From assembly GCF_000091665.1 (NCBI RefSeq), contig NC_000909.1:1026629-1058628 (forward strand): 32,000 bases of DNA, given 5' to 3'. Positions 19,168-19,976 of this stretch are shown in pieces. A program made the translations under genes and the position numbers. The first letter of the stretch is position 1. Every line of letters begins with the position of its first letter. The notes under the pieces are model-generated. The model saw only the letters and a list, made by a program, of their open reading frames with translations, did not search any database and was not told the origin of the DNA. The stretch is from Methanocaldococcus jannaschii DSM 2661 (GTDB lineage: Archaea > AGJL01 > Methanococci > Methanococcales > Methanocaldococcaceae).

Positions 19168-19221
19168 AGTTTGACACCAAAAAACTTTAATTATAGGATT
19201 ATTTTTTCATAATATTCATCA

Positions 19222-19424
19222 CCATAGGGCTTCGCCCTATTGGCACAGGACTTTCACAGTTTTATAATTCAATATAAGGAATTATGATGTCTATAGCATC
19301 ATTATGTTCAATAAGAAATTTATTCCTGTGAAAGTCCTGTGGTATACCCAAGAGCGGGGTTGCCAAAGGCAACCCCACTTTAATAGAGATTTGAAGTAAC
19401 CAATATGGGGTTATGCCCCTACGG
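19222..19424. mobile_element. GC-rich hairpin element, long composite copy E2
   Basis: Left end hairpin CCATAGGGC-TTC-GCCCTATTGG (19222-19243). A 16-bp perfect inverted repeat pairs CACAGGACTTTCACAG (19244-19259) with 19326-19341. Internal hairpin GGGGTTGCC-AAA-GGCAACCCC (19356-19376). The right end CCAATATGGGG..GCCCCTACGG lies in the opposite orientation to the left end. Diverged direct duplications flank the element. Confidence 0.75.
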
Positions 19425-19976
19425 AAGTATTATCTTCTCATAATATTCATCATATCCAAAGTGCCAATGTCTAATTTTTTCTTTCAGTTCTTTTTCAAGC
19501 TCTAATATCTTGTCAAACTCCTCTTTAGTTAGATATCCAATAAACCCTCTTTTTATCGCTTCTTCACATTTTAAACTGCAAGGAATGAAACCAGAAGGTA
19601 AAACTATTGCATAAATTCCTTTATTTTTTAACTCCTCCTTCATTTCTTCAACTTCTTTTAAATGCTCTCTGTCTATTGCTACTCTAACATCTTCAACAAA
19701 AGATTTTATACAGCATTCTGGATAATCCAAAAGCTTTCCAATTTCAAAATCATCCAATCTCCTATAGATACCAAGTTCTGTTGAAACCATTGGGTCTATT
19801 GCCGGCCTAACCTTTGGTTTGTATTTTTCAACAAGCTCAATTTGAAACTTTAATCTCTCAACTATTTGTTGATATTGAAACTCATCCAAGCTTTGGATAT
19901 GCTCTTTTAAAACTTCAAATCCTTCTAATTCTCCACTTCTTAACTTTTCAATTTTATATAGTAGATTTTTAAGCAT
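19419..19976 (-). CDS. Conserved archaeal protein of unknown function with Cys motifs (YPECC ... PCSLKC)
   Basis: 185-aa ORF with coherent composition. Its last two sense codons and stop (..L P *) lie in or against the right end of element E2. Confidence 0.7.
   Translation of the reverse strand: MLKNLLYKIEKLRSGELEGFEVLKEHIQSLDEFQYQQIVERLKFQIELVEKYKPKVRPAIDPMVSTELGIYRRLDDFEIGKLLDYPECCIKSFVEDVRVAIDREHLKEVEEMKEELKNKGIYAIVLPSGFIPCSLKCEEAIKRGFIGYLTKEEFDKILELEKELKEKIRHWHFGYDEYYEKIILP

Follow-up and report, generated by a model that had tools for sequence, protein, structure and literature searches.

Methanocaldococcus jannaschii carries the repeats MJRE1-3, which are short, GC-rich, palindromic, multi-copy and non-coding, lie in short intergenic spacers and sometimes enter coding regions. 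Their description reportedly makes no mention of long gene-end duplications or of allele-like divergence. To our knowledge, the palindromic repeats of this organism have been catalogued, and nothing is known of how they move. The work in question, Suyama, Lathe and Bork 2005 (FEBS Lett 579:5281), appears in the reference list of PMC2229807. The DNA analysed here, referred to as the window, is a stretch of 32,000 nucleotides (nt) of M. jannaschii DSM 2661 that holds the repeats E1 to E4. E2, the main subject, is a repeat of the Methanocaldococcus palindromic kind; it is non-autonomous and rich in hairpins and encloses a second miniature inverted-repeat transposable element (MITE). It lies between two copies, L and R, of the end of a gene of the DUF483 family, and these copies differ only at synonymous positions. 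Homologous recombination between diverged alleles, at or after the arrival of the element, probably explains the pair. The organism is the same as for MJRE1-3 and the E2 family fits their general description; the likeness is drawn from description, not from consensus sequence.

Several other known systems resemble E2 in part. E2 shares with MITEs its small size (203 bp), the lack of an open reading frame (ORF), inverted ends, dispersed copies and nesting, but target duplications of MITEs are short and fixed (2-10 bp, set by the transposase), whereas that of E2 measures 28 nt and those of its family 16-78 nt. In integrative elements, such as prophages in tRNA genes and archaeal elements bounded by attachment sites (attL/attR), a displaced native end and a replacement end stand as direct repeats, as at E2, and these repeats can differ outside the crossover core, both having evolved as working sequence, as in the E2 family. 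Such elements, however, use one fixed attachment site (attP) and an integrase, while the sequence duplicated in the E2 family is unrelated from locus to locus. Casposons and Cas1 integration likewise give unusually long target duplications in archaea, and relatives of E2 sit in clustered regularly interspaced short palindromic repeats (CRISPR; loci L001, L009, L015 and L030). Their duplications are of fixed length (14-15 bp or the length of the repeat), those of the E2 family vary continuously over 16-78 nt, and the E2 family lacks casposon inverted repeats and has no Cas1 nearby. The repetitive extragenic palindromes and bacterial interspersed mosaic elements (REP/BIME) mobilised with REP-associated tyrosine transposases (RAYT), and the palindromes of IS200/IS605, produce no target duplication and adjoin a conserved tetra- or pentanucleotide at the insertion, in contrast to the long duplications of the E2 family and its left junction free of a conserved motif. 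Rickettsia palindromic elements (RPE) are, like E2, palindromes tolerated at or in protein genes; they are translated in frame, whereas E2 ends translation at once and the duplication preserves the integrity of the gene. No transposase, casposase or integrase is encoded in the window, and none of its ORFs is an autonomous transposase partner of E2. We know of no transposase, casposase or integrase, and of no characterised transposition chemistry, that gives this combination of flanks; full-text searches of the literature returned no description of long, allele-like duplications around these repeats.

The DUF483 gene end and its two copies

The DUF483 gene lies in a neighbourhood that includes thrB, trkA and pheT, and its protein of 185 aa equals the 184-aa orthologues plus one residue (Table 1). 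Read on the minus strand, the codons of R are GAT GAA TAT TAT GAG AAG ATA ATA CTT, and the ORF end (19451..19419) continues with CCG TAG. The codons of L are GAT GAA TAT TAT GAA AAA ATA ATC CTA, and the segment 19220..19191 ends with TAA. The duplication comprises 28 nt, namely the 27 coding nt of the last nine codons and one extra shared base (19221 and 19452). L and R match at 24 of the 28 positions and the opening 15 nt are the same. The mismatches on the plus strand are T at 19194 against A at 19425, G at 19197 against T at 19428, T at 19203 against C at 19434 and T at 19206 against C at 19437; all four fall at third codon positions and all four are synonymous. Re-reading of the letters confirmed both gene-end sequences, the 15-nt identity and the four synonymous differences as given in a preliminary description of this DNA. 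The same description derived the proline codon and the stop of the ORF from the terminal hairpin of the element, and this holds: CCG TAG is the reverse complement of the final E2 bases (...GCCCCTACGG), at which other family copies read ...CCCCTATGG. The idea that the tail of R is itself part of the element was rejected, as the other copies end at that point.

Table 1. Positions of E2, its flanks and the related repeats in the window
Feature	Position	Strand	Remarks
trkA, downstream of DUF483 gene end	18511-19167	minus	
Native spacer, 23 nt, contains GGTG	19168-19190	minus	Layout as in relatives' empty sites
Native TAA stop of displaced DUF483 gene end	19191-19193	minus	
L copy, 28 nt, displaced native gene end	19194-19221	minus	
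E2, 203-bp hairpin-rich repeat bounded by inverted hairpin modules	19222-19424	+	
Left terminal hairpin module CCATAGGGCTTCGCCCTATTGG, family signature	19222-19243	+	Left junction exactly here in every copy
Nested MITE, 98 bp, perfect 16-nt terminal inverted repeats CACAGGACTTTCACAG	19244-19341	+	
Internal GC-rich hairpin GCGGGGTTGCC-AAA-GGCAACCCCAC	19354-19378	+	
Right terminal hairpin module CCAATATGGGGTTATGCCCCTACGG	19400-19424	+	Inverted counterpart of left module
CCG TAG, extra proline codon and stop, from E2 right terminal hairpin	19419-19424	minus	
DUF483 (PF04467) gene, 185 aa	19419-19976	minus	ORF list and domain match
R copy, 28 nt, attached to gene body, working C-terminus DEYYEKIIL	19425-19452	minus	
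E1, E2 family	16500-16604	minus	Without nested MITE, without long duplication
E3, E2 family	24405-24483	+	With duplication 24369-24519
E4, E2 family	~27260-27356	minus	With duplication 27241-27375

A scan of the window, CRISPR arrays excluded, for 28-mers with at least 23 matches 60-400 nt downstream returned two places, E2 and E3 (24367-24381), over a background with a mode of 15-16 matches in 28. Because pairs of this quality are otherwise confined to E3, the similarity of L and R is not due to chance.

In 13 related alleles, from FS406-22, M. bathoardescens, sp. 16A and ten contigs of metagenomes or metagenome-assembled genomes (MAGs), the DUF483 gene end is uninterrupted and is followed by a short spacer and trkA. 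The orthologous proteins terminate in ...EKIIL* or ...EKIII*. The spacer to the trkA ATG measures 23 nt after L, 17-26 nt at most of the empty sites and up to 46 nt in M. bathoardescens. Since its own TAA and the 23-nt GGTG spacer to the trkA ATG match the empty sites, L is taken as the native gene end. The comparison indicates that L is the ancestral end, stranded next to trkA, and that R is the copy still on the gene body. The empty site that the preliminary description suggested looking for thus exists, with L colinear with gene end, stop and spacer. Its placement of the left copy across E2 from the gene also stands, but the segment is not ordinary intergenic DNA: it has the end, TAA and spacer of the orthologues.

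GAR, AAR, ATH and YTN, the four codons with an L/R difference, each vary among the 13 working alleles. L is separated by 1-2 changes from the nearest of these (L063 and M. bathoardescens), and R by 2-3. The exact 185-aa protein is encoded on 23 contigs, ten of which were read; all ten are the same as the window apart from a single-base gap in L071, most of them break inside E2, and L070 alone spans E2 and the L copy. L060, which also encodes the 185-aa protein, is the same as the window where the two overlap, except for an internal deletion. Judged by these contigs, E2 is known solely from the type-strain lineage.

The folding of the E2 region is far more stable than that of shuffled sequence (z = -8.3). 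E2 contains no ORF, and it has no Rfam match at gathering thresholds, with E <= 1 giving just sub-threshold noise. The nested MITE splits the canonical host sequence, in which ...CCCTATTGG is directly followed by TATACCC; the TATACCC resumes at 19343. The MITE is one of a family of elements 80-98 bp long, with ends AATAGGACTTTC(A/G)CAG, represented by 19244-19341 in the window, by L001 10376-10471 and L062 4851-4946, and by copies in L018 and L021. One copy of this family lies between pheT and the DUF483 gene in sp. 16A, and the same position holds an ORF of 141-149 aa in M. jannaschii and M. bathoardescens.

Divergence of the duplicated gene ends in the repeat family

Of about 4.5 synonymous sites in the E2 pair, 4 differ between L and R; of 22.5 non-synonymous sites, none does. 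This divergence is at the level of different species and is free of relic-type change. In a decay model, an identical target duplication is followed by free mutation of the relic and by synonymous change only in the working copy. Under this model the chance of a difference being synonymous is 0.28-0.38, depending on transition bias, and four synonymous differences out of four have P = 0.006-0.02.

The family was surveyed by scanning the left hairpin module against one genome per species of a genome collection, a member being defined by CCATAGGGC-NNN-GCCCTATTGG followed by (G/T)ATACCC. The scan returned 46 loci in Methanocaldococcus genomes and MAGs, besides 9 unrelated bacterial matches; it missed M. 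jannaschii, FS406-22 and M. bathoardescens, of which the last two do hold exact matches. E1, E2, E3 and E4 all carry the terminal hairpin module. The viral contig collection holds no match to it, and a viral carrier was rejected on that result. Imperfect flanking direct duplications of 16-78 nt occur in about 30 of 47 Methanocaldococcus copies, and some are still perfect (L028, 35 nt; L039, 78 nt). They cover gene 3' ends, gene 5' ends with the ribosome-binding site and ATG included, tRNA 3' ends and CRISPR repeats. In these duplications, that of E2 (28 nt) included, the left copy always ends exactly at CCATAGGG, with no target motif at this junction, while the right copy usually starts after ...GCCTCTTA. 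At the right junction, the element end CTCTTA and the DNA to the left of the relic often share 3-12 nt of microhomology (L055, L012, L059 and L017). The elements sit in both orientations relative to transcription, those at gene 3' ends on one strand and those at gene 5' ends on the opposite one. The copy on the gene body stands on the right (CTCTTA) side in 14 of 14 protein-gene loci (20 pairs) and also at E2 and E4; at the tRNA loci L026 and L036, opposite to the protein genes, the working copy is on the left.

At these two tRNA loci, composite elements adjoin the tRNA genes. Beyond each element stands a second, decayed copy of the tRNA 3' end, and the relics show structure-breaking C-to-T changes. 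Insertions into CRISPR repeats occur at array edges (L001 1210-1320, L009, L015 and L030) with duplications of about 19 nt of the repeat core (e.g. ACCGAATCGGTCT). At L039 (match 276-297, minus strand), one segment of 50-78 nt is present in three copies with two different hairpin modules between them. Copies 1 and 3 are the same across 78 nt, and the arrangement looks like a recent tandem re-duplication of a unit made of duplication and element.

The comparison was extended to the family with codon-aligned coding pairs, one per locus (152 codons, 14 loci). L and R differ by 33 synonymous and 12 non-synonymous changes, 33 of these 45 differences being at third positions, and the decay model gives P = 1e-5 to 1e-4 at a transition:transversion rate ratio (kappa) of 4-10. 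With E2 left out, 29 synonymous and 12 non-synonymous changes remain (P = 1e-4 to 1e-3). By the Nei-Gojobori method, the proportions of differing synonymous and non-synonymous sites are pS 0.38 and pN 0.032, and the ratio of non-synonymous to synonymous divergence (dN/dS) is 0.06. For adjacent gene bodies, the comparison of species yields dS 0.09-0.79 and dN/dS 0.01-0.12, and a neutral relic paired with a constrained copy is predicted to give a dN/dS of about 0.5. In non-coding parts of the duplications (L012, L035 and L051), insertions, deletions and denser substitutions are seen, against a clean coding part. A stop codon or non-conservative changes are present in some relics (L049 and L038). 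On these comparisons, the copy pairs look like working orthologues of different species. The other copies of the element, which the preliminary description had proposed to examine, therefore do not show random decay. Its view that both E2 copies evolved as coding sequence before they were juxtaposed gains support from the probability calculated for E2 and from the polymorphism of the four codons among orthologues.

Signs of recombination are found at other loci. Where a locus is filled in several genomes, between-species divergence is 0-14% for relics and 0-15% for working copies. Relics are less diverged than their flanks at 4 of 6 loci compared. At two loci, the unit formed by L, element and R has diverged two to four times less than the DNA around it. 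The L055 relic equals its own R copy at positions 3, 14 and 26, but across positions 37-47 it equals the allele of L017 (both L017 copies), with five differences from its own R there, four of them synonymous. The L032 relic has four private differences, all synonymous-like. At a ferredoxin-like locus, the relic of sp. 16A is a mixture of two haplotypes present in relatives; the native stop codon at this locus overlaps the ATG of the next gene. In one genome pair, the DNA left of the relic is unrelated and the gene end is the sole left-hand homology. Mosaic relics show directly that diverged alleles recombined within the duplicated arms. The relic mosaics, the relic divergence and the patterns of left-hand homology require exchange with alleles that evolved in working genes.

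Probable recombination between diverged alleles and its alternatives

For E2, L and R would be two alleles of one gene end, each evolved in a working gene; homologous recombination between diverged lineages would have placed them next to each other. The same picture would result from either of two routes. In the first, an element-bearing segment would be acquired from a relative; in the second, one flank would be overwritten later by a relative's allele, with the replacement halted at the heterologous element. Either route would involve one crossover inside the short duplicated arm, likely in the identical 15-nt stretch by the left hairpin. The first route predicts that the 15 nt of L next to the hairpin are of donor origin, the same as in R, and that the distal 13 nt are the recipient allele, and this is the layout observed at E2. 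From these patterns we infer that such recombination made the E2 pair, and likewise which copy is foreign. The preliminary description had named recombination with a diverged allele as one possible cause, and the family dN/dS and the mosaic relics speak for it. A comparable process is known from the homing of group I introns and inteins, in which, as in the E2 family, an insert spreads between alleles by homologous recombination and leaves mosaic flanks. Unlike these, E2 has no homing endonuclease and no splicing of the insert, and the flanks in the E2 family include a duplicated arm, so the mosaic shows as differences between neighbouring repeats.

Several points weigh against recombination as the origin of the E2 pair. 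E2 offers four informative sites only, and the family statistics come mostly from the other subtype, a short form ending in ...GCCTCTTA, while E2 ends in an inverted hairpin module. The alleles matching each copy, which the preliminary description had hoped for, did not turn up: among the 13 related alleles neither L nor R has an exact counterpart. The genomes and metagenomes searched also held no donor that carries E2 between identical arms. In the flanking genes no mosaic boundary is resolvable, since identity is 82-95% to every relative in all segments and there is no close relative; the DNA of the available relatives has diverged by 8-18%. For ordinary homologous recombination, a crossover within an arm of 28 nt is demanding when the partners are about 14% diverged. 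Recombination between alleles also leaves unexplained how duplications of 16-78 nt first arose and why their polarity is strict.

The origin and polarity of the duplications could be accounted for by integration of the Campbell type. Here a simple insertion, arranged like E1, would give rise to a circular or read-through copy of element and gene end, and a single crossover would place it in the intact gene of another lineage. This would account for the variable length of the duplications, the allele-like differences, the exact left junction at CCATAGGG and the constant position of the gene body on the right (CTCTTA) side. E1, with its right end against a stop codon, has the postulated simple arrangement, and the genome pair with the gene end as its only left-hand homology is of the expected form. 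However, no circles or read-through copies were seen, the tRNA 3' ends with the working copy on the left (L026 and L036) would call for a donor whose tRNA gene is split, some duplications are perfect, and the homology arms are very short. As an account of the E2 pair, Campbell-type integration is not very likely. It may be entertained somewhat more readily, though still tentatively, that hairpin repeats move between Methanocaldococcus lineages without a transposase, as cassettes of element and gene end that integrate by homology into the recipient's intact gene. If so, recombination itself would make the long 'target duplications', displaced gene ends would document past transfers from lineage to lineage, and the strict polarity would stem from capture of flanking DNA at one end only.

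It is quite improbable, and already disfavoured, that an ordinary insertion made a long target duplication whose copies then diverged where they stand, with synonymous changes gathering in the working copy and the relic altered at third positions or not at all. Long duplications are usual in the family and some are still perfect, and the four sites of E2 speak against such a course only at the level of P calculated above. Yet the relic has, as targets for mutation, about five times the synonymous sites of the working copy and shows no non-synonymous-like change. With nearly all synonymous sites different, a neutral relic of such age should be changed throughout. The family dN/dS is also far from the value predicted for neutral relics, and relics are mosaics of working alleles. 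Within-genome gene conversion between L and R was rejected by argument, as it erases differences of any type and cannot alone enrich synonymous ones.

It is also hardly probable that L is still under selection, through removal or bypass at the RNA or translation level, through frequent and precise excision that gives back the native end, or as a short frame over the relic that couples downstream translation. Relics do change about as slowly as working copies between species, nearly only at synonymous-like sites, and the overlap of stop and ATG at the ferredoxin-like locus would suit coupling. Coupling, however, needs an open frame and not conserved amino acids, and the relics of L049 and L038 carry a stop codon or non-conservative changes. 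At E2, TAG directly follows R and L lies 231 nt further, far past known ribosomal bypasses. In programmed bypass (T4 gene 60 and the mitochondrial byps), take-off and landing codons are 27-55 nt apart (about 50 nt in T4 gene 60) within one reading frame, whereas the E2 family also occurs upstream of start codons. L and R are direct repeats and not complementary, so they form no bulge-helix-bulge splice motif, and the elements sit in both orientations relative to transcription. Splicing or ribosomal bypass of E2 was rejected on these grounds of distance, complementarity and orientation.

That the resemblance of the left segment is due to chance, or that the 13 nt past the 15-nt identity belong to the element end, has nothing in its favour but an AT-rich genome and can be practically dismissed, as the 24/28 match has no equal in the window outside the CRISPR arrays and E3, other copies stop at ...CCCCTATGG without this sequence, and the segment lines up with the empty sites in gene end, stop codon and spacer.

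Other features of the window and significance

The remaining members of the family in the window occupy gene ends and gene starts. E1 lies between the stop codon of a glmU-like gene and the start of a dCTP-deaminase-like gene, with its right end abutting the stop codon. Its site is filled in M. bathoardescens (L002 7770-7880) and empty in FS406-22 (L001 7640-7660) and sp. 16A (L062 7643-7665). The C-terminus of the glmU-like protein reads ...KLK* where E1 is present and not ...KLINK*, and the insertion of E1 seems, from these sequences, to have reshaped it. E3 is flanked by a 36-nt duplication (24369-24404 and 24484-24519) with 3 C/T differences. Its target is the overlapping 3' ends of convergent genes, a phosphoribosyltransferase gene (plus strand, left copy) and a DUF530 gene (minus strand, right copy), and the insertion set these two genes apart with both undamaged. 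E4 is flanked by a duplication of about 16-19 nt (TCAAAACAATCACC core) at the 5' end of the gene for the CCA-adding enzyme. The relic adjoining CCATAGG retains ATG ATG GTG, the working copy is without the ATGs, and it appears to start at GTG (27256).

Features outside the family were also observed. An ORF resembling a LAGLIDADG_2 endonuclease (11994-12758, minus strand) directly abuts tRNA-Arg(GCG) (11916-11992, minus strand). The CRISPR arrays at 7781-9135 and 22340-23618 each mix two repeat types (Rfam DR39-like and DR13-like) and are preceded by 300-nt leaders that are 87% identical to each other. Between thrB and the dCTP-deaminase-like gene stands a RelB-like/ParE toxin-antitoxin pair (17094-17518), which M. 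jannaschii and contig L003 have and which FS406-22, M. bathoardescens and sp. 16A lack. An intergenic 80-nt repeat, 81% identical between its two copies (5170-5249 and 13784-13863), has the hairpin TGAACGTCTTCTATAAGAAGGCGTTCA at its centre; it may represent a further repeat family or a terminator common to both sites.

In conclusion, the flanks of these repeats point to homologous recombination between diverged lineages as a main route of element spread or persistence in hyperthermophilic methanogens. Given this pattern, the divergence of flanking repeats is not a safe measure of insertion age. E2 and E3 show how an insertion enters a gene end or overlapping genes without destroying either, and displaced gene ends offer a simple sequence read-out of past recombination between lineages.

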